Both the position numbers and the translations under genes were made by a program. Source: a virus. From it: 64,000 nucleotides of DNA. Below, in pieces: positions 18,364-62,624 of this stretch (positions are counted from its first letter, which is position 1; each line of letters starts with the position of its first letter). Below the pieces are notes generated by a model that ran no database searches, had not been told where the DNA came from, and saw only the letters and a program-made list of their open reading frames with translations. The stretch covers positions 65,911 to 129,910 of the IMG/VR virus record IMGVR_UViG_3300028840_004168; one strand, written 5' to 3'.

Positions 18364-18475
18364 AGCTCAAATAAAGAGCATCCAGCAGCTGTCTAAAGAG
18401 ACAGGGCTAAAGCCTGCTGAGATCATACGCAGAGCTATTGACGCATACATTAAAAAGCACAGGAGAAAACCATGA
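18335..18475 (+). CDS. Second ribbon-helix-helix protein, 46 aa
   Basis: MKRKNVHLTEAQIKSIQQLSKETGLKPAEIIRRAIDAYIKKHRRKP; ATGA overlap with next gene. Confidence 0.75.
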   Translation: MKRKNVHLTEAQIKSIQQLSKETGLKPAEIIRRAIDAYIKKHRRKP

Positions 18476-19362
18476 GCAACGGAGACAACAGCATTGCCCC
18501 GACCAGAAGAATTATAATCCCTATATTCATTCCTTCCAATAGCTATGTAAAAAAAATAAAGAATATAGTCACAGATGCTGAATGGAATGAGATACGAAGA
18601 AATACATACAGAGAAGCTAACTACAGGTGTGAGATATGCGGCAGAACTGGACAGGACTTTGGCTACAACTACCCTGTGGCATGCAGTGATGTTTGGGAGA
18701 TAAACGATGATGAGAACAGGCAGATACTCACTGGCTTTGAAGCACTGTGTCCACCATGCACAGGTGCCAAGTTCTTCATCTTCATAGAGGCATCCAGAAG
18801 GCTGGCTATAATAAGCCATATGGCAGAAGTTAATCAGATAGATGTTATAGAAGCAGAGAGAGTTATCCGTAACGCCCATGTCAGATATAGAGAAAGGTCT
18901 AGCAATCCGCCTATGAATGTAGATATAGAACACCTGTGGAGACAATACAGGATAGATCCTTTTAACGATCATGAAGGAGAGCTTCAAGAGATAAACAGCA
19001 GAACCCCATCCGAACTGGCAAGACAGGCTATATCCAGGGAAGGCATAGAGCTTTCTCCTACAATGCCTATAGCCGCAGAAGAAGTTCTGCCTGCAGACCC
19101 ACCATCGCCTAGAAGAAGAACATCTCTGATGGCTGAAGACAACAGAGATCGTGTAGACATGGAGTCAAGCAGAGTAGCAATGACTCAAGACCTGCTTGAT
19201 GAATATCTGGAACGGCACGACAGAGTGATAGAAGAAGAAAAAAGAGATAAGAAAAAAACAAAAAATATGAAGACAAAAAACCCTGTTAAAAAAGAACCAG
19301 ATCACATAACGACAGACCATATTAAAAGGAAGAAAAGAAAAATATGGCTGCCAAAAAATTAA
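18472..19362 (+). CDS. HNH-like protein with degenerate active site, acidic tail and basic C-terminal tag
   Basis: EWNEIRRNTYREANYRCEICG...PVACSDVW...ALCPPCTGAKF (His positions replaced); ends KRKKRKIWLPKN. Confidence 0.65.
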   Translation: MSNGDNSIAPTRRIIIPIFIPSNSYVKKIKNIVTDAEWNEIRRNTYREANYRCEICGRTGQDFGYNYPVACSDVWEINDDENRQILTGFEALCPPCTGAKFFIFIEASRRLAIISHMAEVNQIDVIEAERVIRNAHVRYRERSSNPPMNVDIEHLWRQYRIDPFNDHEGELQEINSRTPSELARQAISREGIELSPTMPIAAEEVLPADPPSPRRRTSLMAEDNRDRVDMESSRVAMTQDLLDEYLERHDRVIEEEKRDKKKTKNMKTKNPVKKEPDHITTDHIKRKKRKIWLPKN

Positions 19363-19595
19363 ATCTAGCAAAGGTAGTGCAACAGGATTTCAATGCTGAC
19401 AAATACGCCATTGCCAAAGGAAGAGCGCAGACAGGATTCAAAGGAGAAGTGTTGCCACTGGAAGCAAATATGATATCAGAATTTAAAGAAAGGAGATTAG
19501 ATGATGAAACTTATTACCCACGCAGCAATTTTGACGATAACCTTTATAAAATTGCTGTTTACTTCGTCAAGCTCTTTATGGGACGGCGTATCTAA
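19344..19595 (+). CDS. Hypothetical protein
   Basis: ORF in co-oriented run. Confidence 0.5.
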   Translation: MAAKKLNLAKVVQQDFNADKYAIAKGRAQTGFKGEVLPLEANMISEFKERRLDDETYYPRSNFDDNLYKIAVYFVKLFMGRRI

Positions 19596-19622
19596 TTTAA
19601 CACCATCAGGAAGGAGATAGCC

Positions 19623-19979
19623 ATGAACACATTTTTTCTAATCTTTAATATTGTTAAACTGCTCTGGCCTTTCATGGAGAAAGTCTTTGACTATGTGTGG
19701 GCTAAATGGAAAGAGCACGATGAGATCAAAGCCAAGCATCTGGCAGAAGGCAAGTCTGAAAGTGAAGTAGATATATTGCTGGCTGTCTTCAAGGGAGATG
19801 CCAGGAATGAAATTATCAACATGATGAAAGAGCAGAACATCAGCGAGAAAGTAGCCAGGGCTGCCCTGGAATGTCTGTTGATCGCTATCGGCAAGCTGCT
19901 TGACAAAGGCAAAGATCCAGAGAAAATTTTCGGCAAAAAAAAGAAAAAAGATATTGAAGTTGAAAGCTCAACTGAGTAA
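19623..19979 (+). CDS. Hypothetical protein with hydrophobic N-terminus
   Basis: GGAG SD; MNTFFLIFNIVKLLWPF. Confidence 0.55.
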   Translation: MNTFFLIFNIVKLLWPFMEKVFDYVWAKWKEHDEIKAKHLAEGKSESEVDILLAVFKGDARNEIINMMKEQNISEKVARAALECLLIAIGKLLDKGKDPEKIFGKKKKKDIEVESSTE

Positions 19980-21182: not shown

Positions 21183-21524
21183 ATGAGTGATTGGTATCAT
21201 AGATCAAGCCAAGAATATAAAGAAGCTAATAGCTGCCGCAATGCCTCCTGGGACACTTGCTCAAATGACAATTCAAGCGATATAACTGGTGGAATAGGTT
21301 ATGACGGTTATTCGTGGGAATCTGTAGATGCAGTGACTGTTGGCTACTCGCAATGCCACTATTGCGGATGTATGTGTATAGATTTTGATATGCATTCTAT
21401 TGGCGATGATAAAGTTATTTGTGATAATTGCTTCGATTACTTGTTTGAAATTTTACACACGCTAAACAGGAAAAAGAAAAGAATAATTGTAATTACAGAA
21501 AAAAAGAAGGCAAAGAATGATTGA
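21183..21524 (+). CDS. CxxC zinc-finger protein with basic C-terminal tag
   Basis: CHYCG...ICDNC; ends RKKKRIIVITEKK. Confidence 0.6.
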   Translation: MSDWYHRSSQEYKEANSCRNASWDTCSNDNSSDITGGIGYDGYSWESVDAVTVGYSQCHYCGCMCIDFDMHSIGDDKVICDNCFDYLFEILHTLNRKKKRIIVITEKKKAKND

Positions 21525-21995: not shown

Positions 21996-22422
21996 AAAAG
22001 GTAAAATGGTCAGCGATAAAAGCGAGAGGGAGCTGCACGCATTTGCTAAAAAGATAGGTATAAGTAGAGATTGGTTTAACAAGCCGCCTAAAGATGTAAG
22101 GATACCGACAGCGGCTTCTTACAGGCACTACGATCTCATTACCAAAGCCTTGATGGACAGGGCTATACAGATGGGAGCAGAAGAAGTGCCGACCAGAGAG
22201 CTTATCTATCGTGCGTGGTGGCATAATAAGCACTTGAAATCGACAAGGTGGAAGCTGCGGCAGGTCGCTAGGGAAGCGGCAAAGCAAGTAAAAATAAACG
22301 CTGAAGCAGAAGAAAAATCTGTAATTACAGAAAAAAAATCGGAGAAGAAGAGTGCCAAAAAAGCGAAAAAAGCTAGACCGAGAAAAAAAGATAGAGTTGG
22401 TAAGAAGGTCAAAAAAGCATAA
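21967..22422 (+). CDS. DUF4031-like protein
   Basis: MVSD..ELHAFAKKIGISRDWF...HYDL...RAIQMGAEEV. Confidence 0.65.
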   Translation: MEQNMILIDEKGKMVSDKSERELHAFAKKIGISRDWFNKPPKDVRIPTAASYRHYDLITKALMDRAIQMGAEEVPTRELIYRAWWHNKHLKSTRWKLRQVAREAAKQVKINAEAEEKSVITEKKSEKKSAKKAKKARPRKKDRVGKKVKKA

Positions 22423-22723
22423 GACCCATGTGATAAACGGCAGCTGGACAATGCTTCTTAATGGGTTTAGGCCAACTATACCTGCATCTATAGACTGCAA
22501 CGACCCTATCATCATGGCTAGAGGACTGGTAGATAATTCTGAATGCAGCATTACTCTATGCAAGGCTGCTATAAGAGTAAAAGACGATATAGAATCTTTC
22601 ACAGGATCACCAGATGAGATCACATGTATGGCATGCAAGAAAATATATTTCAGGCACAGGCATAAAGACTACAATAAATTTTTAATCAGCATCAAGAAAA
22701 GAAGAAGGGCGATAAGAGTATGA
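22352..22723 (+). CDS. H/C/CxxC zinc-finger protein (family B, divergent) with tag
   Basis: THVI...LC...ITCMAC; ends KKRRRAIRV. Confidence 0.55.
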   Translation: MPKKRKKLDREKKIELVRRSKKHKTHVINGSWTMLLNGFRPTIPASIDCNDPIIMARGLVDNSECSITLCKAAIRVKDDIESFTGSPDEITCMACKKIYFRHRHKDYNKFLISIKKRRRAIRV

Positions 22724-22992: not shown

Positions 22993-23326
22993 AAAGAAGC
23001 CGCACCTTGTTTTTAACGTCCTTATCTCAACTACAGATGGAAGCATGTATTGTGACGCTACCTGCCTGGAGATGGATCTGGTTGACGCTGGAACTACTAA
23101 CGACCTTGACGCATTAGCACGAGATATGGCTGACATCATCCAAACACAGCTGCAAGAAACACTGGAAAATGACAATGTCGAGAATGCATATAGAGGCGCA
23201 CCTTTATGGCTATGGTTAAAATGGTCTAAAGCTGGAGCCCCTACTAACAGAATTATAAGAAAGATCATAGCAGACGGCTTGCACATGTTTGATATAGAAA
23301 TATTGTTTTATGAGGATCTGGTTTAA
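22979..23326 (+). CDS. HicB-like antitoxin-fold protein
   Basis: FNVLIS...ATCLEMDLVDAGT...DMADIIQTQLQETLENDNVENAYRGAP..LW. Confidence 0.6.
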   Translation: MMMDRKKPHLVFNVLISTTDGSMYCDATCLEMDLVDAGTTNDLDALARDMADIIQTQLQETLENDNVENAYRGAPLWLWLKWSKAGAPTNRIIRKIIADGLHMFDIEILFYEDLV

Positions 23327-23670
23327 TGGTTAAAAAAATAACATTAGAAGACGTAGCTGAAAGCATGCACAAGGTTGACTTCTACAGCCCTGACAGAATA
23401 TATAACTGCTTCAAAGGAATGACTGGAGAGTTGCATGTGATAAACTCTGTATTGCCTATGCTCGGCAACAACAGGAGGATAGTAGCCCATTGCGGCGTTG
23501 AGCAAGAAGTCCATCCGTTATCAGAAGCAGAGATTACTAAAGTAGCAGCTGAGGATGCCACAGTGATATGTAAAATGTGCAGAGACGTATGTAAAATATA
23601 TTTGCAGCCAAAGCATAGACCGCTGACAGTCAGCACCAGAAAGAGAAGAAAGTTCAACTATGGTAAGTAG
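23326..23670 (+). CDS. Family B zinc-finger protein with tag
   Basis: LHVI...HCG...ICKMC; ends RKRRKFNYGK. Confidence 0.65.
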   Translation: MVKKITLEDVAESMHKVDFYSPDRIYNCFKGMTGELHVINSVLPMLGNNRRIVAHCGVEQEVHPLSEAEITKVAAEDATVICKMCRDVCKIYLQPKHRPLTVSTRKRRKFNYGK

Positions 23671-23986
23671 ATATTTAAATTCAATAACAGTGGATATTAA
23701 GATGTATTCATGCTTTACGTTTGAAAGAATACATCACATAATCAAGACAGCTGATGCTGATGGGCACGACTCAATTGCACTCAGGGCGTATTGTACTGCA
23801 GGATGGCTGATAGAAAAAGCGCATGCAGATAAAGTCATAAAAGTAGTCAGCAGCACAGATCCACAGCTATGCCCTCATTGCCTGATGGTAGCTAATACTA
23901 AGATAGAAATAAAAGAATATGATCTGAAAGATATATTTCCACCAGCAAGAAAACGGAGAAGGTTTAACTATGGTAACAACGATTAA
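23660..23986 (+). CDS. Family B zinc-finger protein with tag
   Basis: HHII...YC...PQLCPHC; ends RKRRRFNYGNND. Confidence 0.65.
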   Translation: MVSRYLNSITVDIKMYSCFTFERIHHIIKTADADGHDSIALRAYCTAGWLIEKAHADKVIKVVSSTDPQLCPHCLMVANTKIEIKEYDLKDIFPPARKRRRFNYGNND

Positions 23987-24785
23987 TGAATGGGAACATG
24001 GGCCTATGTATGACGTATTCTACGAAGATGGACATTATCACGTCATTTCAGAAAGACAAGTAAATGTCGATGATGGTCGCATAGATGAATATATGGTATC
24101 AGTATGCGGCAGGCCTCGGCATATTAATCCAGAGATAGATGTAAATAGCCAAACCACCAATATACGCAGAGATCATCCTTCGCTGTGCACCGCATGCATG
24201 CAGCCTGACAGAATGATATCCAGGCGAATGAAAGAAACTATAAATAAAGTCAACGTTGATCAAGTAATAGATTGCAAGCCGATGGTCAAGATGGCACGCA
24301 TACTCAACCTTTCCGACAGGGAAGTCCTCATATCAGGAGAGGCTGGCCCTGGCGCATCTATGCTTGTCAAGATTCAACCAGACTCTATAGTTACTCTGTC
24401 TATGCACGATTACAACATATGTAAGAAGTCAGATGCCTTACAGGGCATGATACACGAAAGATACGTAGAGATAGATATATGCGACCACTTCTTTACTTTC
24501 AACCTGCCAGAATCTACTCAAAGGCATATAATAGGCACGATAAAAGAATCGAAAGACAGCTATGATGCCAACACCCACAAGCTCGTGCGCTCTGCAATCT
24601 CCATGTGTGAAAATCACTACATGGAAATGAGCTCACAGCTGATAGGAGAGGCATTCAGGCACGTATGGTATAAACATCCAGATCTGTGCTACACTTGTAA
24701 GGTAATCTATAACAGGTTCCACAAGGGCAGAGAAGAAGTAAGCAGCCGTAAGAAGAAACGCAAATTCAACCAATTCAAAGGATAG
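23970..24785 (+). CDS. Family B protein with two zinc-finger modules and tag
   Basis: YHVI...HPSLCTAC and RHII...HPDLCYTC; ends RKKKRKFNQFKG. Confidence 0.7.
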   Translation: MVTTINEWEHGPMYDVFYEDGHYHVISERQVNVDDGRIDEYMVSVCGRPRHINPEIDVNSQTTNIRRDHPSLCTACMQPDRMISRRMKETINKVNVDQVIDCKPMVKMARILNLSDREVLISGEAGPGASMLVKIQPDSIVTLSMHDYNICKKSDALQGMIHERYVEIDICDHFFTFNLPESTQRHIIGTIKESKDSYDANTHKLVRSAISMCENHYMEMSSQLIGEAFRHVWYKHPDLCYTCKVIYNRFHKGREEVSSRKKKRKFNQFKG

Positions 24786-24792
24786 ACAAACT

Positions 24793-25317
24793 ATGTCAAA
24801 CAAAGACGATGATATAAGACTTATAATTAAAAAAGCCAGGATATTAAGTCTTACTGATTATGCTGTCTATTACAATTCAAATAATGACGTATGCCTTCTT
24901 AAACTTGAGCGAGATCATCTAGCAATCATAAAAGAAAACAAATATAACGCCCTGTGTATTGAAGCACCACAATTCTCTAATGATATAGCAAGAGGCGCAG
25001 TAGAAGTAGAAGTGTCAGACTACTACTACACTTATTTTCATGATTACGACAAAGAAAAAATAAGACACATTATTAAAAAATTTGTAGATGTAGAAAAAGA
25101 TGGCGAGATGCGCAAATTAGCTGTGCCATATTGCAGTGAAGCAAAACCATCAATAAGAGAAGAAAAAAACACATGGAAAAGATTTAAATATTCTTACTGG
25201 AGACATCCAGATCTATGTGTATTGTGTAATACTGAATTATGGAAAGACAAAGGAATAGCAGAAAAAGATTTTATATTAAAATCAAATAAACGCAAATTCA
25301 ACCAATTCAAAGGATAG
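24793..25317 (+). CDS. Family B protein with tag
   Basis: KARILSL...RHII...PYC...HPDLCVLC; ends NKRKFNQFKG. Confidence 0.7.
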   Translation: MSNKDDDIRLIIKKARILSLTDYAVYYNSNNDVCLLKLERDHLAIIKENKYNALCIEAPQFSNDIARGAVEVEVSDYYYTYFHDYDKEKIRHIIKKFVDVEKDGEMRKLAVPYCSEAKPSIREEKNTWKRFKYSYWRHPDLCVLCNTELWKDKGIAEKDFILKSNKRKFNQFKG

Positions 25318-25320
25318 GCA

Positions 25321-25809
25321 ATGGCACACATCGATTATAAAATGGTAATCTATAAAGAGCCCAACGGCGATATCCAGGGGCATGTGCTGGAGATGGGCAT
25401 GTCTACAGCCAATACAGAAAAACCATATAGAGAACTCACAGGAGAAGTGCTGTCACTGCTGATCAACGGCACTATAGAAGCTATAGCCGAAGAACTTATC
25501 AAAAATTTTGATGACCATGCAGAGCAACTAAAAAGAGTAAAAGAGGCTTCAAGCCTGGAAGAAGATCGTCCAGATCACCCTTATATCAACCATATCACCA
25601 GGAGAACAGATTTTCATTTAGATAGATTCAAGCTCTTCAGCAAAGTAGCGCACAATCCTATAGCTACTATCTATAAGCCTGTAACACACGATCTCACAGG
25701 AACGTTTCTGATTAGCCTCACAGCTTACAACGGAATACCAGATAATAAAAACATGCCCAAGCCTAAAAGAAGAAAGAGAAATATAAAAGTTGACAAAGTC
25801 AAATTATAA
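25321..25809 (+). CDS. HicB-like fold protein, paralog of 26677..27159, with tag
   Basis: YKMVIYKEPNGDIQGHVLEMG; ELTGEVLS and PIATIYK shared with paralog; ends KRRKRNIKV. Confidence 0.55.
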   Translation: MAHIDYKMVIYKEPNGDIQGHVLEMGMSTANTEKPYRELTGEVLSLLINGTIEAIAEELIKNFDDHAEQLKRVKEASSLEEDRPDHPYINHITRRTDFHLDRFKLFSKVAHNPIATIYKPVTHDLTGTFLISLTAYNGIPDNKNMPKPKRRKRNIKVDKVKL

Positions 25810-25869
25810 GAGGTAAGATATACATGCTCCATCAGACAGATAGACAGACAGAAAAATAAGGAGAAAGAC

Positions 25870-26295
25870 ATGATAGTAAAAATTAAGACAGACAAAGACC
25901 GCTTTTTAATCATCGACAACCTTTCCCATGCAGAATATGATCCAATAGGCTATGTAGCATTTGATGCTGGAGGCAGATGCACCTGCTCACCAGATAGCGC
26001 ATGCCGTGAATGCAGAGGGGCAGCGTTTAAGGTGGGCCATGACATCAACTTGAGCAATGCAAGAGAAGTAGAGAACTCCTTCAGAAAAATGTATGCCCAT
26101 GTAGCGATGCCAAATCTGGATCTATGGCCTTCTGCTGGACATGCAGACAACGACCATGCTCATTATTTTTATAACACTATGTATCTGTTTAAAAATGATG
26201 GCACTGAGATAAGCATCATCTTTGATACAGTGGCATATATCTGTAACGACAACAGCAAGACGCTTGAGAAAGTGGATTGTAGAAATAACTTTTAA
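25870..26295 (+). CDS. Hypothetical Cys-containing protein
   Basis: GGAG SD; CTC..ACREC. Confidence 0.55.
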   Translation: MIVKIKTDKDRFLIIDNLSHAEYDPIGYVAFDAGGRCTCSPDSACRECRGAAFKVGHDINLSNAREVENSFRKMYAHVAMPNLDLWPSAGHADNDHAHYFYNTMYLFKNDGTEISIIFDTVAYICNDNSKTLEKVDCRNNF

Positions 26296-26344
26296 CCAAT
26301 AGCTCTAAACTGTCTGGTGGAGCTAAATAACAAAGGAGCCAACA

Positions 26345-26641
26345 ATGAACGAACACGCAGGCCTTATGATCCAAGACCTTAAAGAAAAAATAAAACTATT
26401 AGAAACTGAAAACAAAGAACTCAAAGAGCACGCCAAAGAAGCCGAAGCAGCCGCACGCACGTACAAGCAAAGATGGCTTGATTCAATGGAATCGCTGCAG
26501 CACATCGAATACAAAATAGACAAGATGGATGCGTGGCTGACAGGGATGATTGTGCAGAGCGAAACAACAGATAGGCTAAGACCCGATCACGCCAAGCTAT
26601 TCAGAAAAACAAGAACTAAGTTCAAAGAGCTTGGATTATAA
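26345..26641 (+). CDS. Coiled-coil hypothetical protein
   Basis: AAGGAG SD; heptad pattern. Confidence 0.6.
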   Translation: MNEHAGLMIQDLKEKIKLLETENKELKEHAKEAEAAARTYKQRWLDSMESLQHIEYKIDKMDAWLTGMIVQSETTDRLRPDHAKLFRKTRTKFKELGL

Positions 26642-26676
26642 TATGTAATTTCAGAAAAAACAGGAGATATGACTCA

Positions 26677-27159: not shown

Positions 27160-27160
27160 T

Positions 27161-27490: not shown

Positions 27491-27493
27491 CCA

Positions 27494-28021: not shown

Positions 28022-28023
28022 AT

Positions 28024-51977: not shown

Positions 51978-52066
51978 TATGAAATTTCAGAAAATAAAAA
52001 ATGCGCTCATTAAAAAACAAGTATGCTTAACTTTCTACTTGACAAATGTTCTATTATTATTATAAT
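51978..52066 (+). promoter_or_regulatory. Palindrome plus sigma70 promoter
   Basis: TATGAAATTTCAGA 51978-51991; TTGACA-16-TATAAT 52039-52066. Confidence 0.7.
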
Positions 52067-52104
52067 AATAATAATGTATGAAAATAAGTCGCTAAGGAGT
52101 AATA

Positions 52105-53857: not shown

Positions 53858-54348
53858 TGGCAAAAGCAAAAGCTGAAGCAAAAAAGGAAATAGATCGCCA
53901 GCAACTGATGGAGATCAGAAACATCAGGATTGCTTCTTATTTGCTTGACTGGGAAATGCGTGAATACCAGCAGCTTTACAACATAGAGTGCAAAGCGTTT
54001 GGTGGGTATGAAGAAAATACTATATGCGACAAGTGCAATGACAGGATAGCTAATGAGTGCGCCATGATATCAGATGCTGCGATAGAATTATGTGAAGCAG
54101 GCGAGAACGGCATGTGCAGCCAATGTGAAGCTGATTATCCTGCATTGTTTAATGTTTGCGACAGATCAAGTGCAGGCCCTGAAGATAGGAAACCAGTTGA
54201 CAGAAATAAAGAGATAAAATATCTCATGCCTGATGTTACTCTTAAAGTAAAAATAAAAACTATGATATCTGAAACAAACGCAGATTCTAACATAGCGCCT
54301 GCATCCAGAAAGAAAAGAGCTATCAAGCTAGGAGATAAAAAGGAGTGA
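53857..54348 (+). CDS. Family A Cys-rich protein with tag
   Basis: YNIECKAFG...CDKC; ends RKKRAIKLGDKKE. Confidence 0.7.
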   Translation: MAKAKAEAKKEIDRQQLMEIRNIRIASYLLDWEMREYQQLYNIECKAFGGYEENTICDKCNDRIANECAMISDAAIELCEAGENGMCSQCEADYPALFNVCDRSSAGPEDRKPVDRNKEIKYLMPDVTLKVKIKTMISETNADSNIAPASRKKRAIKLGDKKE

Positions 54349-54530
54349 CGATGGTTGATGCCAGAAAATTTTGGGATAACTTTTTTGAATTCCTGTCAGA
54401 CACTGAAGGCCAGCCTATCGAAGAGATAGAAGCGGAGCTGAAAGAAGATGTCATAGACGTAGACAAGGTCAAGCAGAGTGTTTACGACTTGCTTGATAGA
54501 TTTGAAAAAGAACAAAAGAAAAAGGAGTGA
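54345..54530 (+). CDS. Small acidic protein
   Basis: IEEIEAELKEDVIDVDKV. Confidence 0.55.
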   Translation: MTMVDARKFWDNFFEFLSDTEGQPIEEIEAELKEDVIDVDKVKQSVYDLLDRFEKEQKKKE

Positions 54531-54913
54531 CGATGTCTAAGTTTAATAAAGAAAATTCACTGGAAGTTGTTTCTTACATTCTGAAACAAACTAAGGCCAA
54601 GAAGATATCATGGAGAAGGACAGGCGCTGGCATGCATCGTGATACCGAATACTATGATTACAAGGGCGCTATGAGATCATATAAATTGTTTATCAGCGGA
54701 GTGGTTGCAGGGGGCATATCTCATTGGCTGGATACCTTTCGACTGGTAATAGATAAAGACGATGTTATAGCAGCTGTGGAATGGCGAAGGCCGGAAATGA
54801 AAGAGTTGGTCAAGCTATGGGAAGAAGTTAGAAAATTTGCTGATAACAAACAAAGCGCCGATCAAAGGAAACTCAAGAAAGATATTTTAAAATTGGCAAG
54901 AGAAAATAAATAG
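54527..54913 (+). CDS. Hypothetical protein
   Basis: TKAKKISWRR; coupled. Confidence 0.6.
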   Translation: MTMSKFNKENSLEVVSYILKQTKAKKISWRRTGAGMHRDTEYYDYKGAMRSYKLFISGVVAGGISHWLDTFRLVIDKDDVIAAVEWRRPEMKELVKLWEEVRKFADNKQSADQRKLKKDILKLARENK

Positions 54914-54928
54914 AAAGGAGTAACAACG

Positions 54929-55282
54929 ATGGACGATGTGCTCACTACGCTAAAGAAAAAGAAAGAATTTTATCTGGAAGAAGTAAGTAAAATAAATAAG
55001 GCAATAGCGGTTATCACTAAAAAAGATACAGCTGTATCTCCTAGAAGAGTAAAATGGGGAGATGTAGTCATGGAAGTTTTTGAAGATCAAGATAAAGAGG
55101 TCTTATACTCTTTAGCCTATGTGCGCCAAGAGCTTGCAAGCAGAGGTTATCCAGAAGCATTAGACGAAAAGAAAAAGGCTGCTATATTTGACGCATTAAA
55201 AAGACTAGTAGCTAGAGGAATATTAGGCAAAGATGGTAGTAGTCGTTATTATTTATATCAGAAAAGGAGTGACGATGTATAA
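54929..55282 (+). CDS. Coiled coil plus winged-HTH-like protein
   Basis: AIFDALKRLVARGILGKDGSSRYYL. Confidence 0.55.
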   Translation: MDDVLTTLKKKKEFYLEEVSKINKAIAVITKKDTAVSPRRVKWGDVVMEVFEDQDKEVLYSLAYVRQELASRGYPEALDEKKKAAIFDALKRLVARGILGKDGSSRYYLYQKRSDDV

Positions 55283-56012
55283 CATACTTTCTATTGACTG
55301 GGACTATTTCTTTCCAGATGTAGCGCCGTATGATTGGGGTCACACTGAGAACAGATCTCCTATGCCCCAGCAACTGCTTTGGACTATAAGAGCAGGCAAT
55401 GGAGATATGTATGGCAAGAACAGGCCAGCGATTGATTATATTAAACCATCGGGGGCTGAGAAAAATTTCTGGAATTACATAAAATTTAAAGAGCACTCGC
55501 TGCTTGCCATATGTGAATCACACAGCGACCTGCATGCTATAGTTGACAAAGTCCTTGTGGCAAAAAAGATAGGAGTATGGAACTTCGATGCTCACCATGA
55601 CCTATATCACAAAGACGAACTTGACTGTGCCAACTGGCCCCACCACCTTATCACAGACGGTTATATCAAGCTGAAAGATTACCACCTGATCATGCCTGCC
55701 TGGGCTAAAGAAGCCAATGTCATGTGCAATTCCGCTTACAGACGTGATCGTGTAGATGTAAGATATGACATGCCTGAAGACCTGCCTGAGTTCGACATGA
55801 TATTTATATGCAGGTCAGGCGCATGGACACCCCCCTGGTGCGATGCTGACTGGATCAAGTTTATCGAACACTGGAAAGGCACAAGGCAGTGGCGCACGAA
55901 AATAGCTCTCCAATATGCTTTAGAGCCGAGAGAGTTTGACAAGGATCAGGCTATGGAATGGGCTGCACAACAAGAAGAAGCGATGAAGAGAGTTATAGGA
56001 GCAAGCAAGTGA
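55275..56012 (+). CDS. Arginase/deacetylase-fold (UPF0489-like) metallohydrolase
   Basis: LSIDWDYFF, ESH, NFDAHHDL; start revised to MYNILS. Confidence 0.6.
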   Translation: MYNILSIDWDYFFPDVAPYDWGHTENRSPMPQQLLWTIRAGNGDMYGKNRPAIDYIKPSGAEKNFWNYIKFKEHSLLAICESHSDLHAIVDKVLVAKKIGVWNFDAHHDLYHKDELDCANWPHHLITDGYIKLKDYHLIMPAWAKEANVMCNSAYRRDRVDVRYDMPEDLPEFDMIFICRSGAWTPPWCDADWIKFIEHWKGTRQWRTKIALQYALEPREFDKDQAMEWAAQQEEAMKRVIGASK

Positions 56013-56371
56013 CAGTTGAATTATTGTATGGAATCATAGATCTGACTATAGCTCAGATGCACAGCACAGCAGACCACGTATTCCAGGAAGACAGTACTAT
56101 ATCTGTGCCATTAGATAAAATAATTCTGATGACCGATAAGAACTATCATTCACATTATTCAGATATTCCACAATCAGGATCTATGATATTCCTTGAAGGT
56201 GGAACCCATCTGACAGTCAAAGAAACAAGAGATTATATCTTTAAAGAAATAGAGAAGTCATTTGAGATCCTAGGTGTCAGCATGATTGACAAGACCATAG
56301 GATCAAATAACACCAGACGGAAACGTAGATTATTCTGGATAAAGGATGAAGCGAATGAAAAAAAAGACTAG
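56009..56371 (+). CDS. FlbD-like small beta protein with tag
   Basis: SVPLDKII...SMIFLEGGTHLTVKETRDYI; ends RRKRRLFWIK; GTG start inferred. Confidence 0.5.
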   Translation: MTVELLYGIIDLTIAQMHSTADHVFQEDSTISVPLDKIILMTDKNYHSHYSDIPQSGSMIFLEGGTHLTVKETRDYIFKEIEKSFEILGVSMIDKTIGSNNTRRKRRLFWIKDEANEKKD

Positions 56372-56567
56372 GGCAGCAACAGCTGCAGCCAAGATGTTTG
56401 ATGTGATATTTACACATGTAGATCTCATGTATCAGAACAACACAGCGCTTAACTACTTCAAGCACCTGAAGGAATGCGTGGATGCAGAAGTAGCGAGACG
56501 TGAACGTATTAAATTGCAGATCCGCAATCGCAAATGGAAAGCAAAATTAACACTAAACGGCAAATAA
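56346..56567 (+). CDS. Hypothetical protein
   Basis: Coupled ORF. Confidence 0.5.
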   Translation: MKRMKKKTRAATAAAKMFDVIFTHVDLMYQNNTALNYFKHLKECVDAEVARRERIKLQIRNRKWKAKLTLNGK

Positions 56568-56577
56568 GGAGCCAAAC

Positions 56578-56904
56578 ATGTTCAGGAAAAGCAAAGACGG
56601 ATTAGATTTCGATAAGCTCTTTGGAGATTTTTTCAACAGGGAACGAACTATACTTGACAGTGTGGAAAGGAAAGTTCTCTTGGAGACTACTGTTATAGTA
56701 AACGACCATGCCAGGAAAGCAACTGTGCCTGTCAATAACATAGACTACGTGCAGGAATACGATGGAGTAACCTTTGAAGGATACGAAGACGATGTAGCTC
56801 ACAAACGATGTAAGACTATCATATTCCTGAAGACAGACAGTATACTGCTTTCTCTGGATAAGTATGAAGATGTTATAAATGCAATAGGATTGAAGAGAGG
56901 CTGA
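56578..56904 (+). CDS. FlbD-like small beta protein
   Basis: TVPVNNIDYVQE...TIIFLKTDSILLSLDKYEDVINAI. Confidence 0.5.
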   Translation: MFRKSKDGLDFDKLFGDFFNRERTILDSVERKVLLETTVIVNDHARKATVPVNNIDYVQEYDGVTFEGYEDDVAHKRCKTIIFLKTDSILLSLDKYEDVINAIGLKRG

Positions 56905-57401
56905 TGGAACCATTAAGCAATGTTAATAAAAAAATATTAAGAGAAGCGCTAGAGCTGTCAGCTAAAGCTGCATTGGTAGAGATGAATATCGTAGCAGTCA
57001 GTTGCCTGAACAAGATACCATGTGAATACTTCGGCATTGGATTCAACAGGAAGTGCATGAACAAGGGCAACGATCCAGAAGTAAGCAAGCGATGTGAACA
57101 GTTTGTCAAGCTATGGCAAGACCTATGCTTTCAAACTCAAGAGTTGCTTATGACAGGCGAATGCGAGAAGATAGGACATATTATATATGTAGCCTGCAGG
57201 CTGTGCAAGCTTAAGGCTAAATATTTAGAAGAGCAAGATCTGAATCTAATTTCCAGGTGCAGAATAAATGTGCCTGAGTTTGAAAACTTTGGCATCGACT
57301 GGTCTTTAAAGTTTAAAGATAATAAACTATGCGAAAGAGATTACAGAAAGAAGAAAGCTGCAGCCGCAGGCAAGAAAAGAAAGATGTTCAGTTTTAAGTA
57401 G
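56904..57401 (+). CDS. Family A Cys-rich protein with tag
   Basis: NKIPCEYFG; ends GKKRKMFSFK. Confidence 0.7.
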   Translation: MEPLSNVNKKILREALELSAKAALVEMNIVAVSCLNKIPCEYFGIGFNRKCMNKGNDPEVSKRCEQFVKLWQDLCFQTQELLMTGECEKIGHIIYVACRLCKLKAKYLEEQDLNLISRCRINVPEFENFGIDWSLKFKDNKLCERDYRKKKAAAAGKKRKMFSFK

Positions 57402-57415
57402 GAGATAAATAGTAA

Positions 57416-57934
57416 GTGAATTATAATTATAAGAAAGGGCATAAATACAGCATGACTAAAGGCGAAGAGATCAAGAGGCAGGCATTCCAGCTGCATTTCC
57501 AGTTTGAAAGGTTTGTCAGGATAAATAAGATAGAGTGTCCTCACTTCGGAGATGGATGGTCAGACCATCATAAAGATTGTCTGGAGTGCAACGTGCTTGT
57601 AAATGAAGAATGCAAGCGCATTGACAGTGAGATAAAAAAGATATGCCGCACGATACAAGAAGGGTATACAAACGGATGCAGTGAGATGTATCAGCGCAAA
57701 TTCGCTCCGCTATGCCTTTCTATATGCCAGCCATTGAAGCACATAAAAAAGAAAGGGTTTCTGCGCAAGCCATATTTGAATAAAAATAAAGAAGCTATCA
57801 CTATGTTTGAATTTAAAGTGTCTGTCAATAATAACAAGACAACAGAGCTCCAGGCAGTCAATGAATTCCTGACTGCTAAAAGAGTCAGGCGCAACTTCTT
57901 CTTTAATAAAAGCACTAAAGGAGTAGAGCGATGA
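57416..57934 (+). CDS. Family A Cys-rich protein with tag
   Basis: NKIECPHFG...CLEC; ends KRVRRNFFFNK. Confidence 0.7.
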   Translation: MNYNYKKGHKYSMTKGEEIKRQAFQLHFQFERFVRINKIECPHFGDGWSDHHKDCLECNVLVNEECKRIDSEIKKICRTIQEGYTNGCSEMYQRKFAPLCLSICQPLKHIKKKGFLRKPYLNKNKEAITMFEFKVSVNNNKTTELQAVNEFLTAKRVRRNFFFNKSTKGVER

Positions 57935-58281
57935 CAGTATATAAAAGGTGGGCTGATATATTTACAAAGACACATGAATCTTACAACATCAGCTGTAACC
58001 ACTTCGGAGTCGGTAAATACGATGGCTATAGTGAATGCAAAGATTGTGTGATCAGATATACCTGCAGAGAGCTAGGAAGTTTATTTATGTCGATATGCAA
58101 TGCATATCACTCAGAAGACTGCGATGGTGACTGCGGCGCAGAGTGCCCTGTGCTTAATGATGCATGCCATATAGAATCAACCGATGCGCCGCCTACTCCA
58201 GTGATACGTGCAGACAAGCATAAGACGGAAATAGTCAAGCGCAAGAGGCGCAAGATGTTTCAGTTCGGAGATAAGAAATGA
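57931..58281 (+). CDS. Family A Cys-rich protein with tag
   Basis: YNISCNHFG...CKDC; ends KRKRRKMFQFGDKK. Confidence 0.7.
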   Translation: MTVYKRWADIFTKTHESYNISCNHFGVGKYDGYSECKDCVIRYTCRELGSLFMSICNAYHSEDCDGDCGAECPVLNDACHIESTDAPPTPVIRADKHKTEIVKRKRRKMFQFGDKK

Positions 58282-58631
58282 CGATCTATATTGATATATA
58301 TCACAAGTGGGAAGATCATTATGATCAAGCTGTAGACAGATATGATATCAAATGTCCATACTTCGGTTTTGGCAGAACTTATGATTTTGCAGAGTGTAGC
58401 GAGTGCGCTGTAGTGATGACATGCAGTAGCATGGGAAGCTGGCATAAGGAACTGTGTGAAAGGCTGGATTCAGAAGAATGTAGCGCATACTGCAAAGAAA
58501 GATATCTTGCAATGCACAAAGCATGTGAGAAACAGCACTCTCAATCTATACCTGTGTCTGTATTAAAGAAAGTAAAAGTCAAGAAAAGAAAAAGTAAGCG
58601 CAAGATGTTTCAGTTTGCAGATATAAAGTAA
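58278..58631 (+). CDS. Family A Cys-rich protein with tag
   Basis: YDIKCPYFG...CSEC; ends KSKRKMFQFADIK. Confidence 0.7.
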   Translation: MTIYIDIYHKWEDHYDQAVDRYDIKCPYFGFGRTYDFAECSECAVVMTCSSMGSWHKELCERLDSEECSAYCKERYLAMHKACEKQHSQSIPVSVLKKVKVKKRKSKRKMFQFADIK

Positions 58632-58640: not shown

Positions 58641-59750
58641 ATGTCAGAAGATGATCTTAAACAGATAAAAGACCTTGCATTGATGCGATACAGGATTATG
58701 AATACGTTACAGCTTGAATGCAAGATGTTCGGCATAGTGGGATGGGCTACTTATAACACAGTCGGGATGTGTAATACGTGCAATCCTAAAGTCATGGATG
58801 CCTGTGTAAAGATAAGCGTCAACCACATGCACCTATGTCATGAGATAAAGGAATGCAGCAAGTGCAGGGATTATAACCAGGGCATTTTCAGCTTCTGTGA
58901 AGAGATAAGAAGAGTGCGTGATGATGAGTCTGCCTGCATCCCCTGCATAGAAAAACTGTCTGCAATAAGATTGAACAAGACGAAGCGCCGTCAGATGTTC
59001 AGCTTCAAGGAAGAAAAATCTGAAATTTCAGAAAAAAAAGTTGAACAGAAGATAGAAAAATTTTCTGAAGAGCTCAACAACATCGTGTTTAGCAACTTGC
59101 CAACGATAAACCACAGCGCTACGCAAGAGATGCCTACCGAAGAAGAAGCTGTTCCAGAAGTAGATGCTGTCGGACATGACGTAACCTACAAGCAACGCAT
59201 AGCAGATGACATGGATGATTTAGACCTGCCAGCAGATTATTATATCACAACAAGATCTTATCTCGATGGCATAGGAGAGAACTTTGGCTATAACGATGAC
59301 GTATCACAAACGCTTGCTACTGGATTTGATCACATATCACAGTTCGACAGAAGGATATACGGCATCTTCACTCAGATAGATGTAGAGCACCATGAATTCC
59401 CTCTGCTTGAAGCGGTAGACGACTTGCTTGAAGCGCTGCATGGCAGAACACATCTGGCATTCAGCAGCTACTACCATGACTCATGGACTAGACTTCATGA
59501 CACACTGTTCAGAGCGCAGTTCTGTCCGTTCAGATGGCGCATAGCTTATGGCACTCCAGAAGAAGTAAGAGGCATGCTTTTAAATATGCATGATGATGTC
59601 ACTATGGCGCTTGCAGAATGCACAGATGAGTGCATGATGCATGTGGTATCGCATTTCCTCATCGCTCTTATAGTGAACGATTACAAATTGCAGGAACCTG
59701 CGCAGCCTGCAGATAGCAACTGGCATAGTGATGACGATATCCCTTTTTGA
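58641..59750 (+). CDS. Family A domain plus internal tag fused to acidic helical domain ending in SSB-like tip DDDIPF
   Basis: LQLECKMFG...CNTC; internal TKRRQMFSFK; C-terminus SDDDIPF. Confidence 0.65.
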   Translation: MSEDDLKQIKDLALMRYRIMNTLQLECKMFGIVGWATYNTVGMCNTCNPKVMDACVKISVNHMHLCHEIKECSKCRDYNQGIFSFCEEIRRVRDDESACIPCIEKLSAIRLNKTKRRQMFSFKEEKSEISEKKVEQKIEKFSEELNNIVFSNLPTINHSATQEMPTEEEAVPEVDAVGHDVTYKQRIADDMDDLDLPADYYITTRSYLDGIGENFGYNDDVSQTLATGFDHISQFDRRIYGIFTQIDVEHHEFPLLEAVDDLLEALHGRTHLAFSSYYHDSWTRLHDTLFRAQFCPFRWRIAYGTPEEVRGMLLNMHDDVTMALAECTDECMMHVVSHFLIALIVNDYKLQEPAQPADSNWHSDDDIPF

Positions 59751-59963: not shown

Positions 59964-60407
59964 ATGGCTAAGAAGAGACAGTTCTACGGTTTCAATCCAG
60001 AGAAGCGTGCAGATGGACTGCCTGTGACTCTCGAAGAAGCTGTGTTAGAGCTAATGAAAAAGATGCCTGAATACGATATGCATACGATGCTGCAGATGGA
60101 TGAAGATCATTTCATGGCTGAAGCACATCACAGTCTAGGCAGGACTATCAGGAATAAATGGATACATATACCTATGTCAAGGATGAGGGTATGGTTTAAG
60201 AACAGCGGCATAGAACATCCTGACGATATGTCTAGTATCATCCTGCACTGTTTCTACAGGTATGCCAAAGGCATGCCATTAAGACTTGATGATCTGGTCA
60301 ACAAAAAGATAGAGCACTGGAACGAATGGAATCCAGGTCTGGCAAAGAACATACGATTGAAATACTGGAATAGCGATCTCAGAAAGATGGAGTATGGTTA
60401 TGATTGA
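59964..60407 (+). CDS. DUF6794-like protein
   Basis: HHSLGRTIRNKW...GIEHPDDMSSIIL. Confidence 0.65.
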   Translation: MAKKRQFYGFNPEKRADGLPVTLEEAVLELMKKMPEYDMHTMLQMDEDHFMAEAHHSLGRTIRNKWIHIPMSRMRVWFKNSGIEHPDDMSSIILHCFYRYAKGMPLRLDDLVNKKIEHWNEWNPGLAKNIRLKYWNSDLRKMEYGYD

Positions 60408-61356
60408 TATTTTTGATATGGTAGTCATACTTGCAATATTCCTGCAGGCGCTTGTTTTGAAGCGTAGCGGCATTCTGCGCCGTATGCTGACTAAGAGAGT
60501 AGAGACGCTTGAAGATGAGGTTATGAAAACTCGTAGCAGGATTGCTACCCACAGGCTTTTACAAAACGCTCCACGTTTAAACGATCTGCTTGACAGAATA
60601 AACAACATCCAACAAGAAGATTATGAGAATAGATCTGCAATAGCCAGAATACAGACTCAGCTTGATAGCCTGGGATACAGTATAGAAGGGCCATCTCCAG
60701 ATAATATAAATGAAAGAGTAGAGACATTAGCCAGACAAGCATCCAGAGATATATTAAGAGAAACGCAGGAAGAACAGCGCAGGCAACACGCTGATCATAT
60801 AATAGCATTGCGAGAACAAGATCCTAGAATGCATGCGCCATTAGGACTCCCAACCAATGCAGCTGTTCAAAACATGACAGAGCACGTAATTGAAATACAA
60901 GATCTAGGATTAGCAGTTGGTACAGACAACAGAATAAATTTGCATGACGCTGGATTTACATTTGCACAGATAAATGACTCTGCAGATCTTCAAAGGCTAG
61001 TGTTAAGTGGCGCTCTGTATGCTCATAACCTTCCGCTATTAAGAACAGGCAGGGCAGCACCGCCTTATTCAGTCAGCTATCAGCCATTAAGAGACAGAAT
61101 ATCTGTTACTGCAACACAGCAGATAGAAAGAGATTCAAGTTCTTCATGGGAAGATCAGCATACACAAGAACAGCTGGCAGCCGCTGGCTACACTGGCCTT
61201 GCAGATCTTGGCTATAGTGATGAAGAGTATGAAGATCCAGATGATTGCGCTATTCCAAAAGAACCTGATCTAATCGATGTTAATAATATTAAAAAACGCA
61301 GACGGGCGATCAAGCATAAAAAATCTGAAATTTCAGAAAAAAAAGAGAGGAAGTAA
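60394..61356 (+). CDS. TM-anchored coiled-coil protein with internal virion-type domain and tag
   Basis: N-terminal TM; VQNMTEHVIEIQDLG...SADLQRLVLSG; ends KKRRRAIKHKK. Confidence 0.6.
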   Translation: MVMIDIFDMVVILAIFLQALVLKRSGILRRMLTKRVETLEDEVMKTRSRIATHRLLQNAPRLNDLLDRINNIQQEDYENRSAIARIQTQLDSLGYSIEGPSPDNINERVETLARQASRDILRETQEEQRRQHADHIIALREQDPRMHAPLGLPTNAAVQNMTEHVIEIQDLGLAVGTDNRINLHDAGFTFAQINDSADLQRLVLSGALYAHNLPLLRTGRAAPPYSVSYQPLRDRISVTATQQIERDSSSSWEDQHTQEQLAAAGYTGLADLGYSDEEYEDPDDCAIPKEPDLIDVNNIKKRRRAIKHKKSEISEKKERK

Positions 61357-61426
61357 TGCACTGGCTGATAGCCGTAGGATTAATATTTTTATACACTGAA
61401 AAATATAAAACATACTATACAGAGGA

Positions 61427-62197
61427 TTGGCGATGGTAGATGGATTGCTCTTGATAATTTCATTCTTATTGATAGTCATGCTGAAGATGTGCTGGAGCAG
61501 GCTGAAAACAGTAGAGAAGAAATCGCTTGATGAGATAGAGCGTCTCGACAAAAAATATATTGAGATAGTCAGAATACTGCATGAAAGAGCTGTCGCAGGA
61601 ACAGAAGAGATTGTAGATAGAGAAGTAATAGAGGTTCATAACGATAGAACGGAAGAGCCGCCAGGGTTTCAGTTTAACCATACGTCTGATGCAGAACCTG
61701 TTGCTACAGGAAGAGCACGTCAGGGCACAAGCGCAGGACGAATGGCACGTAGAAGAATAGAACATCGCAGGGAAGCAAGAGAAAGCGCTGCCAGAGAACG
61801 GCAGCAGCTTGGTAGAGTCTTTACTACAAGAGAAGAGATTGACGAACAAGTAGATGGAATAATATTTGAGCAAGAGAATATACATGAACGCCTGGAAAGC
61901 ATAAATGAGAGCATAGCAGCTGAGAGGGCGCAAGCTGAAGAAGCTGAGTCAGAGCAGATCACAGAAACAGAGATAATTACTAACACTATACAATGGATCA
62001 ACGATAACAATATGAATTTAGAAATAGGTAGTCTTACAGATGAAGAGATAAGGACAGTGCATGAAAAGCTGATGACCATGTTTGCTGTGCCGCTTGAAGC
62101 GGTAGAGAAGAAACCTGTTGCTAAAGAAGATCCGATAGATCCGAACAACATCAAGAGGCGCAAAAGAAAAATAACAACAAGGAGTAAAAATGAGTGA
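61427..62197 (+). CDS. TM-anchored coiled-coil protein with tag
   Basis: N-terminal TM; ends DPNNIKRRKRKITTRSK. Confidence 0.6.
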   Translation: MAMVDGLLLIISFLLIVMLKMCWSRLKTVEKKSLDEIERLDKKYIEIVRILHERAVAGTEEIVDREVIEVHNDRTEEPPGFQFNHTSDAEPVATGRARQGTSAGRMARRRIEHRREARESAARERQQLGRVFTTREEIDEQVDGIIFEQENIHERLESINESIAAERAQAEEAESEQITETEIITNTIQWINDNNMNLEIGSLTDEEIRTVHEKLMTMFAVPLEAVEKKPVAKEDPIDPNNIKRRKRKITTRSKNE

Positions 62198-62624
62198 GAC
62201 ACTTTGGTTTGCATTCATGATGGCAGCTGGAGCTTGGGTAATGGTTATAGCTATAGTCATATACCAGATACAGCAAAAACAAAAAATAGAAAATATGGAA
62301 GAGCTTTTGAAGTATGTAGAACGGCGCATGGAAATAATAAGCATGTCTCCAGAAGAAAGAACATTACGAGATAACGTAGGAGATGGAGCTATGTATGAGC
62401 AGAGTCCACTGGATTTGAGTGAAGAAGTAATGGAAGCGTTGAGCACAGTGCTAAGCCGCAGAGGGCTGACAGCAGAAGAGGCATCCAGGATTTTAAACAA
62501 CTTCAACGAGAACATGATGCCTGAATTAGAGATGCTGCAAGAGCCAGAAGAAGAGCCAGATCACGAACCGATCATTCCAGAAAATATCCGAAGAAGATCA
62601 CGAAAGATCAATCGTAATAAGTAA
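62190..62624 (+). CDS. TM-anchored protein with tag
   Basis: N-terminal TM; ends PENIRRRSRKINRNK. Confidence 0.6.
   Translation: MSETLWFAFMMAAGAWVMVIAIVIYQIQQKQKIENMEELLKYVERRMEIISMSPEERTLRDNVGDGAMYEQSPLDLSEEVMEALSTVLSRRGLTAEEASRILNNFNENMMPELEMLQEPEEEPDHEPIIPENIRRRSRKINRNK

Follow-up and report, generated by a model that had tools for sequence, protein, structure and literature searches.

Why should about one in five of the predicted proteins of a phage carry the same short peptide, nearly always close to the C-terminus? The question is raised by a 64,000-nucleotide stretch of viral DNA (hereafter the window), the right half (positions 65,911-129,910) of the single 129,910-bp contig IMGVR_UViG_3300028840_004168 of IMG/VR. 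An earlier note on the window had reported a basic-hydrophobic C-terminal tag in two forms, an F class with 24 carriers and an I class with nine, and the motif that it described was present in every one of these 33 proteins. With about seven further carriers, the total is now about 40. The core of the tag consists of four to six Lys or Arg residues, zero or one other residue, and then M/L-F-x-F/Y, F-N-Q-F/Y or I-x-hydrophobic. Two or three residues ahead of the hydrophobic anchor there is almost always an Arg, and the hydrophobic pair is spaced i, i+2 or i+3. We found no description of such a tag in the literature searched. The results presented here identify it as a real, selected and lineage-specific tail motif on about forty proteins. 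Coordinates refer to the window unless they are marked as genome coordinates, and single genes are named by the position of their first nucleotide.

To quantify the enrichment, the tag was sought in the last 25 residues of 176 open reading frames (ORFs) of at least 60 amino acids (aa). An F-type tag was present in 22 of them and an I-type tag only in 17, levels that were never reached in 2000 trials in which the residues within each tail were shuffled (F-type, 2.4 +/- 1.5, maximum 10; I-type, 7.0 +/- 2.3, maximum 15). Internal 25-aa windows gave an expectation of 0.8 F-type and 1.2 I-type tags, and the N-termini held one and two, respectively. The residue next after a basic cluster was L, I, F or M in 36 of 63 C-terminal clusters, versus 15 of 77 internal ones. 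Tails rich in Lys and Arg are not a sufficient explanation, because shuffling the same residues loses the signal: what is enriched is the order, a basic run followed by a hydrophobic residue.

The carriers are concentrated in two gene islands, at 17.2-29.1 kb (12 of 23 ORFs) and at 45-62.6 kb (21 of 37), and thus make up over half of the ORFs there. With these islands and one AAA+ module, nearly all carriers are accounted for. The strict motif was found in none of the 30 ORFs at 29.2-45 kb, and only three of 72 structural and replication genes had a tail of this kind, each borderline, which bears out the absence of the tag from virion and replication genes. Nearly all genes of the genome lie on the minus strand; the exceptions are the two plus-strand islands (the second beginning at about 45 kb) and a plus-strand stretch at 39-45 kb. 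Since consensus sigma-70 promoters head both islands, we infer that these are probably early genes read by the host polymerase. The three perfect promoters on the plus strand also point to a host that probably uses canonical sigma-70 promoters.

We then asked how many independent lineages of proteins carry the tag. Families were clustered by BLAST after removal of the last 22 residues. Family 1 (Cys-rich, helical, with the signature NxIxCxYFG) comprises 15 tandem genes at 47785-58631 and the N-terminal domain of 58641 (E-values from 1e-3 to 1e-15). Family 2 comprises five genes at 23970-28575, and its H...C...PxLCxxC pattern also occurs in 23326, 23660 and 22352. Family 3 consists of 25321 and 26677. 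Because 22 of the 24 F-class carriers fall into two tandem paralogue expansions, with 49323 and 55958 outside them, most of the F-class count reflects shared descent, and the independent families or acquisitions number about 12-14, not 40. The claim of about 33 proteins of unrelated folds therefore has to be reduced in number, although the tag does span unrelated families. Families 1 and 2 compared without their tails had a relatedness probability of 0.2% in hhalign, and the domain predicted by AlphaFold 2 (AF2) was helical for the former and alpha/beta for the latter. The product of 49323 (119 aa), encoded inside the family-1 array, has no BLAST link to this family and matches its alignment at the tag only. 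No mutual similarity was detectable among the I-class carriers; they include an AAA protein (Pfam, 2.5e-28), a DUF3150 protein (1.3e-20) and three proteins whose N-terminal hydrophobic helix precedes basic residues. Given this order and the positive-inside rule, the tag of these three anchored proteins is predicted to lie in the cytoplasm. The two classes look interchangeable, since 53857, a member of family 1, and 22352, which resembles family 2, both carry an I-class tag.

The tag had also been proposed to be an appended module, and this was supported by a Rhizobium phage and a mycobacteriophage: their homologues of the AAA+/DUF1257/DUF2997 module end without a polybasic run, so the tail looks like a lineage-specific addition. 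Searches of the carriers with Pfam, PHROGs and PADLOC revealed no family beyond AAA, DUF3150 and generic AAA-type matches, and the labels HicB-like and FlbD-like, previously given to some carriers, have no Pfam support. No convincing match to the AF2 models was found in PDB or BFVD (Foldseek E-values all above 0.01; VIA Z no higher than 6.4 for the helical model and 4.5 for the alpha/beta one, both inside the range that the tool itself gives as noise), and the ESM Atlas gave no lead for the folds.

Alignments and models also describe the anatomy of the tails. In family 1, neither the length nor the sequence of the segment that joins the last conserved Cys to the tag is constant. The AF2 model of 47785 has a domain at residues 1-121, a segment with a predicted local distance difference test (pLDDT) score below 50 at residues 123-155, and a tag with a pLDDT of about 76. 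The tag was assigned as coil by DSSP in both AF2 models, and its pLDDT was near 50 in family 2. Tails average a net charge of +6.6 and are attached to mildly acidic bodies, which have diverged to 20-30% identity while the tag was kept. The anchor mostly lies 2-15 residues before the C-terminus; one tag is internal (58641), one is N-terminal (the DUF3150 protein), and only three or four are within three residues of the end (22352 and the AAA+ protein at +2, genome 5010 at +3). The models thus suggest a short linear motif on a leash, with a domain, a poorly ordered linker and a conserved peptide.

The conserved peptide is written in variable DNA. The codons found in the tags are AGA, AGG, CGA, CGT, CGC and CGG for Arg, ATA, ATC and ATT for Ile, and TTT and TTC for Phe; entropy per codon position is highest at third positions, and identical tag residues of non-adjacent paralogues share the same codon in only 57% of cases. 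As the codons vary synonymously, it is the peptide and not the DNA that is under selection, in line with the earlier note. The adjacent pairs 50943/51464, 23970/24793 and 48318/48821 have almost identical tail DNA (10 of 10 codons for 50943/51464), consistent with a recent duplication or with gene conversion acting locally. Even where no gene follows, at the ends of the two islands (28575 and 62190), the tag is retained.

One part of the pattern given in the earlier note, the Gly or Lys at its end, turned out to be a Shine-Dalgarno (SD) site and spacer of the overlapping next gene rather than a peptide signal. In the family-1 array, Gly follows F-x-F in 11 of the 12 genes within which, or at whose stop codon, the next gene begins, and it is missing in all three genes followed by a gap (51464, 56904 and 58278). 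The Gly codon lies within GGNG, GGAG or GGGA, 5-10 nt ahead of the next start codon, and the K/D/E-rich residues past it are likewise explained by the downstream SD site and spacer. In 23326 and 23660, the TAT GGT of F-N-Y-G encloses the start codon ATG of the gene that follows, whose SD region overlaps the basic codons. These genes provide a worked example of how the signals of overlapping genes, SD sites and start codons, contaminate apparent C-terminal motifs.

What could such a peptide do? We regard it as highly probable that the tag is a functional signal shared by its carriers. Our preferred reading, put forward tentatively, is that it serves as a lineage-specific short linear motif for docking on one common partner. 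The handle would bring all carriers to a single reader, which would offer an acidic surface beside a small hydrophobic pocket. Our best single guess is that this reader would be a protein rather than bulk DNA or lipid, and a specific protein reader is a possibility that we hold with similar reserve. The first Phe is invariant in 15 of 15 F-class tags of the array at 47.8-58.6 kb and the F/Y at +2 is conserved; this tight conservation, together with that of the upstream Arg, argues for a protein pocket over bulk electrostatics.

Our first choice of reader would be a ClpX-type AAA+ unfoldase, for which the tag might serve as a tether or as a degradation signal for the timed removal of early proteins; taken by itself, ClpX is an unlikely candidate. 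The second choice would be a hub made by the phage, such as the acidic-repeat protein P0005 (268 aa; genome 26231-27037, minus strand), encoded between the DnaE-type polymerase and the primase. The N-terminus of P0005 is a small zinc finger that mixes the CxxFG signature of family 1 with the PDLCxxC signature of family 2. The rest comprises acidic repeats of the AVEDDE type over about 55 residues, AAKAAP repeats and an end rich in Lys, Gly and Arg (GRG). Its acidic tract is the most acidic in the genome, and from its composition P0005 is a possible electrostatic partner of the basic tags.

A shared handle would imply one hub that organizes or times the proteins of phage takeover. In its boldest form, which we find rather doubtful, the docking motif would be an address code by which a dedicated reader gathers more than half of the early proteins, including the AAA+ module and three membrane tethers, at one site in the cell; this reader could be P0005 itself or a host hub. 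If true, it would represent a type of sorting that, outside the nucleus-forming jumbo phages, has not been described for bacterial viruses. Known terminal address or destabilizing peptides belong to single phage proteins or small sets (MuA, lambda O, T4 internal proteins, scaffold tips). With a host machine such as ClpX as reader, one could try the tag as a portable handle to direct proteins in bacterial cells, and the way in which a phage loads or exploits such a machine would become visible, while a phage-encoded reader would amount to a new way of organizing the infected cell.

Several points weigh against a docking peptide with a common reader. Most tags are not terminal, and the internal and N-terminal ones add to the misfit with the known C-terminal ClpX motifs. 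The resemblances to ClpX-recognized peptides involve short, low-complexity strings, which come cheaply; a nematode repeat protein matches equally well. The carriers are mostly Cys-rich or HNH-type, so that a basic tail could just add affinity for nucleic acids. Because 22 carriers stem from two expansions, the number of independent events is modest. Finally, no diverged sister genome with the islands, from which a ratio of nonsynonymous to synonymous substitutions (dN/dS) might be derived, was recovered.

The main rival to the docking peptide is anchoring to nucleic acids, which we consider somewhat unlikely. The basic run would bind the DNA or RNA backbone and F-x-F/Y would stack on bases, giving zinc-binding and HNH proteins a non-specific affinity and the three membrane carriers a DNA tether. 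Most carriers are indeed Cys-rich, and so probably zinc-binding, or HNH-like, and both the HNH protein at 38806-39180 and its orthologue on a metagenome contig (L044, described below) keep five K/R followed by L-x-x-Y. The occurrence of the tag at C-terminal, internal and N-terminal places also suits such a role; the alternating aromatic pair that comes after K/R is reminiscent of RNP1 strands in cold-shock and RRM domains and, in its basic-then-aromatic layout, of phiX174 protein J, and phi29 p16.7 has a comparable order of membrane helix, coiled region and basic end. Non-specific binding, however, needs no invariant Phe, fixed spacing or near-invariant Arg. Moreover, the I-class tags have no aromatic residue, the AAA+ and DUF3150 proteins and their module neighbours have no known link to nucleic acids, and the replication proteins of the phage are untagged.

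Improbable in our view is a peripheral membrane anchor, in which the basic run would lie on anionic lipids and Phe or Ile would insert, so that early proteins would be collected at the inner membrane. The high positive charge of the tails favours it, as does the family-1 profile, which picks up the 24 IDEKKKRGFGF...SFK repeats of a nematode protein, similar to the MARCKS effector domain; function would also not depend on position. The tags nevertheless have only two or three hydrophobic residues and are coil in both AF2 models, so that a terminal amphipathic helix of the MinD or FtsA type (about 8-15 residues) looks unlikely. By the Wimley-White scale, the Ile of the I class adds little interfacial energy, and three carriers are already anchored by an N-terminal helix.

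Still less probable is a virion cargo signal, by which the tag would bind packaged DNA or the inner capsid surface and a variety of proteins would be packaged and injected. Fast-diverging paralogue arrays that share a short terminal peptide recall the T4 internal-protein locus, and a C-terminal peptide after a flexible linker, seen here in the alignment and the AF2 model of family 1, is the layout of encapsulin cargo. Yet the carriers lie opposite in strand to the virion genes, behind sigma-70 promoters, and are probably early; membrane-anchored proteins make unlikely cargo, no virion or scaffold gene is tagged or next to a carrier, and the tag has neither the N-terminal position nor the cleavage site of the T4 signal.

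Least probable of all, and largely refuted, is a by-product without peptide function, arising from A/G-rich gene ends, downstream SD sites, paralogue descent or microhomology in array expansion: the SD overlaps behind Gly and the trailing residues and in 23326/23660, the identical tail DNA of some adjacent paralogues (50943/51464) and the two expansions that yield 22 carriers would fit it, but in most genes the next start is 15-40 nt downstream of the basic run and F-x-F, the tag persists on the final gene of each island, CGN makes up about 40% of Arg codons, which speaks against selection for purine-rich RNA, residues identical between non-adjacent paralogues have different codons in 43% of cases, within-tail shuffling destroys the signal, and the tag occurs on unrelated families.

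Is the tag present outside this genome? Megablast and tblastn searches of 50,697 phage records returned nothing for the islands or the structural block, and a scan of IMG/VR with the portal protein also gave nothing. A metagenome scan with the terminase yielded four loci; a long contig ends 402 nt short of the island side, and one of 7 kb has a few small genes, none of them tagged. An IMG/VR contig with 36% terminase identity has no tags in the upstream genes. The family-1 profile was searched against 5.8 billion proteins and against 1.84 billion proteins, the latter being representatives. It matched its own paralogues, one true homologue (P0019, 139 aa) and one nematode repeat protein. P0019, the sole family-1 homologue outside the phage among the 1.84 billion representatives, ends in KKKNRPIRKM, a basic run followed by Ile; no further relatives of it were found, and none of gene 18472. 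It is encoded at the end of L044, a 14-kb ENA metagenome contig, as the single family-1 homologue there. L044 and the window at 34-45 kb have five genes in common at 30-66% identity, including the HNH endonuclease, which is 54% identical to its orthologue. With the tails of P0019 and of the L044 HNH protein (RRKRRKLQNY), a tag-like end exists in at least one other, distant phage. Upstream of the family-1 homologue, about 850 nt of L044 are non-coding; several motifs are repeated there, and TTGACA/TATAAT-like boxes are present.

The nematode match (P0018, CAJ0572865.1) is a 5419-aa protein of Mesorhabditis spiculigera with 24 repeats of about 175 aa, each with IDEKKKRGFGFHLPSFKIGGKK. It matches the linker and tag of the family-1 profile through the IDEKKKRGFGF of its repeats, with an E-value of 5e-11 summed over repeats, and we take this as convergent MARCKS-like basic-aromatic chemistry. 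A DNA pattern for K-R-K-M-F-x-F-G gave 32 single hits in IMG/VR, none of them a C-terminal tag on an array. No population variants were found, the contigs of three runs being identical to the window.

The genome is that of an uncultured 130-kb marine-sediment phage whose identical sequence occurs in sediment and seawater metagenome runs. It has tailed-phage genes (portal, large terminase, minor tail protein), with a ClpP/crotonase-fold protein adjoining the probable capsid genes, and a replication set comprising a DnaE-type polymerase, primase, DnaB, DnaC, helicase, UvsX-like recombinase, SbcC and an SSB-like protein. No tRNA genes were found in the genome. The gene at 43585-44349 (plus strand) matches Pfam Kyano_Gp96, a domain named after cyanophage proteins, with its N-terminal 96 residues (E 2e-11); this match and the Ycf46-like AAA+ module hint weakly at a cyanobacterial or marine host. 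A 44-codon ORF at 49669-49803 (plus strand), whose ATG is preceded by GGGAG and lies within the tail of 49323, is probably a real small gene filling an apparent 118-nt gap. The phage is rich in low-complexity charged tracts: the 629-aa protein at 1-1593 (minus strand) has the acidic tract DDGDVDADDSDDD, a 220-aa protein (L004, genome 63111-63773) has an (EP)15 repeat and an SSGKK-repeat end, and SGKKA repeats also occur in the SSB-like protein.

In the 369-aa product of 58641, a family-1 domain is followed by the internal tag, then by the palindrome TCTGAAATTTCAGA, translated as KSEISEKK, and finally by a long acidic stretch with DDDIPF as its last residues; the gene has the appearance of a fusion that bridges what was once a gene end. 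The SSB-like protein (genome 20201-21271, minus strand) ends in EEDIPF. By their sequences, these two phage proteins appear to carry a docking tip like the C-terminal tip of bacterial SSB. The same 14-bp palindrome stands directly behind three tags, at 61320-61333, at 59020-59033 and past the AAA+ stop codon (genome about 7430). It is inside coding sequence in two of the three cases, and behind the AAA+ gene a TTGACA box follows. It looks like an operator at gene ends.

Table 1. Tags, tag-like tails and promoters (window coordinates unless marked as genome; for tags in the window, the coordinates are those of the tag).
Feature	Coordinates	Strand	Gene and remarks
I-class tag KKKRNINV	genome 7445-9049 (gene)	-	AAA+ ATPase; extra carrier, left half
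I-class tag KRRKINF and N-terminal copy KKKRQI	genome 6312-7421 (gene)	-	DUF3150 protein; extra carrier
Tails KKKRQITTI and KKRKANIRKFI	genome 5010-5327 and 4625-4966 (genes)	-	small left-end neighbours of AAA+/DUF3150
Sigma-70-type promoters, near-perfect (11/12)	17119 and 17876		head of island 1
I-class KRKKRKIWL	19324-19350	+	18472-19362, Cys-rich, HNH-like by eye
I-class RKKKRIIVI	21468-21494	+	21183-21524, Cys-rich
I-class KKRRRAIRV	22694-22720	+	22352-22723, family-2-like; very C-terminus
F-class RKRRKFNY	23638-23661	+	23326-23670; TAT GGT contains ATG of next gene
F-class RKRRRFNY	23948-23971	+	23660-23986
F-class RKKKRKFNQF	24747-24776	+	23970-24785, family 2
F-class KSNKRKFNQF	25279-25308	+	24793-25317, family 2
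I-class KPKRRKRNIKV	25759-25791	+	25321-25809, family 3
I-class RRKKRRISF	27118-27144	+	26677-27159, family 3
F-class KKLKKKRLFNQY	27974-28009	+	27494-28021, family 2
F-class KPKRKRLFNQY	28525-28563	+	28024-28575, family 2; AF2 alpha/beta, tag pLDDT about 50
F-class RKKRLFNQF	29085-29111	+	28575-29123, last of island 1; no downstream start, no Gly
Tag-like RKRRKLSGY	38839-38865	-	38806-39180, HNH endonuclease; L044 orthologue ends RRKRRKLQNY
Sigma-70-type promoter, perfect TTGACA-16-TATAAT (12/12)	44886-44913	+	head of island 2
F-class KKKKRSMFNF	48274-48303	+	47785-48318, family 1
F-class DKKKRSMFNF	48771-48809	+	48318-48824, family 1
F-class KKKKRSMFKF	49283-49312	+	48821-49336, family 1
F-class KKKRKMFKF	49623-49658	+	49323-49682, CxxC...CxxC protein; body not alignable with family 1
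Sigma-70-type promoter, perfect (12/12)	49840-49867	+	inside island 2
F-class RVKRRFHF	50316-50351	+	49800-50366, family 1
F-class KKKRKFHF	50906-50929	+	50363-50950, family 1
F-class KKKGRRMFGF	51423-51452	+	50943-51467, family 1
F-class KKKGRRMFSY	51917-51946	+	51464-51970, family 1; 134-nt gap to next gene, no Gly
Sigma-70-type promoter, perfect (12/12)	52039-52066	+	in 134-nt gap before gene 52105
F-class KSRKRKMFNY	52543-52572	+	52105-52590, family 1
F-class KNKGRKMFAY	53078-53113	+	52571-53128, family 1
F-class KHRKRNMFSF	53816-53845	+	53375-53857, family 1
I-class RKKRAIKL	54307-54330	+	53857-54348, family-1 member
RRKRRLFWI	56315-56341	+	55958-56371, no relatives in genome; extra carrier
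F-class KKRKMFSF	57372-57395	+	56904-57401, family 1; SD past stop, no Gly
F-class KRVRRNFFF	57878-57904	+	57416-57934, family 1
F-class KRKRRKMFQF	58237-58266	+	57931-58281, short family-1 member
F-class KRKSKRKMFQF	58575-58616	+	58278-58631, short family-1 member
Internal KTKRRQMFSF (residues 110-122)	58968-59006	+	58641-59750, 369-aa protein; after family-1 domain
I-class KKRRRAIKH	61291-61317	+	60394-61356, N-terminal membrane helix; tag on cytoplasmic end (predicted)
I-class KRRKRKITT	62153-62182	+	61427-62197, N-terminal membrane helix
I-class RRRSRKINR	62589-62615	+	62190-62624, N-terminal membrane helix; last of island 2

Other roles for the tag were considered and rejected. The core of a monopartite nuclear localization signal, K-K/R-x-K/R, often after Pro, fits PKKKRKF, MPQKKKRQI and PARRKKRRI by eye, a resemblance of sequence only; nuclear import in a eukaryote was set aside in view of the bacterial-type replisome, the SSB tips ending in IPF, the SD sites and the sigma-70 promoters, with which an importin-alpha reader is not expected. 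A beta-clamp-binding motif would require a Gln that is absent and a different spacing, and forty clamp binders are implausible. Slippery A-runs for frameshifting are present in only a few tags. Stalling of the nascent peptide for translational coupling was discarded in view of the variable distance to the stop codon and the tags on the last genes of both islands, and a mini-ORF starting at the tag Met in view of family 2 and several family-1 tags, which have no Met.

Peptides recognized by ClpX are among the closest known signals. The C-terminus of MuA, RRKKAI, is a C-motif-2 degron of ClpX (PMC8138137, PMC12723719). It shares with KKRRRAI (22352, 60394) and RKKRAI (53857) a basic run, a small residue and Ile, and all of these are phage proteins. 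The MuA signal, however, is at the extreme C-terminus, whereas 2-15 residues usually follow the anchor here; the other I-class tags have K, N, Q or R before Ile, and the F class has no counterpart. Likewise, the lambda O tag with KILNFGR is recognized by ClpX (PMC12723719), and KMFNYGK and SMFNFGG resemble it. This signal (N-motif-1) is nevertheless N-terminal, whereas its F-class look-alikes are C-terminal and owe their Gly to the next SD site. As so few tags lie within three residues of the C-terminus, with one internal and one N-terminal, the suggestion that the tag is a ClpX degron fits poorly.

In ClpX, the zinc-binding domain recognizes a motif LKxh, and the tail of SspB (XBR peptide) docks there (PMC7226468). 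In layout, SspB resembles what the models predict for the carriers: a folded domain, a long flexible linker and a short conserved C-terminal basic-hydrophobic peptide. About five of 13 I-class tags fit LKxh with Ile in place of Leu (for example AIKL, NIKV and AIRV) and none of the F class does; in addition, SspB is a single adaptor, compared with forty proteins here. One run of complex prediction with two E. coli ClpX N-domains and the tail of 22352 gave a score of 0.01 (mark 0.34) and counts neither way.

As an address label, a short terminal peptide on unrelated or fast-diverging proteins has parallels in the T4 capsid-targeting sequence and the cargo peptides of encapsulins. The T4 sequence stands at the N-terminus, where the prohead protease removes it by cutting at L/I-x-E, whereas the tags described here are C-terminal with no adjacent site; the encapsulin consensus is rich in Gly, Ser and Leu, and the present carriers look early and non-virion. 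In chemistry, the tag resembles the basic-aromatic binders of polyanions, such as the MARCKS effector domain, the C-terminal membrane-targeting sequence of MinD, phiX174 protein J and the RNP1 strand K-G-F-G-F, in which several Lys or Arg stand beside Phe spaced i, i+2, and which bind acidic lipids or nucleic acids wherever they are placed in the chain. Those clusters are longer or part of a fold, whereas here the I class lacks an aromatic residue and single positions are conserved more tightly than generic binding of polyanions requires.

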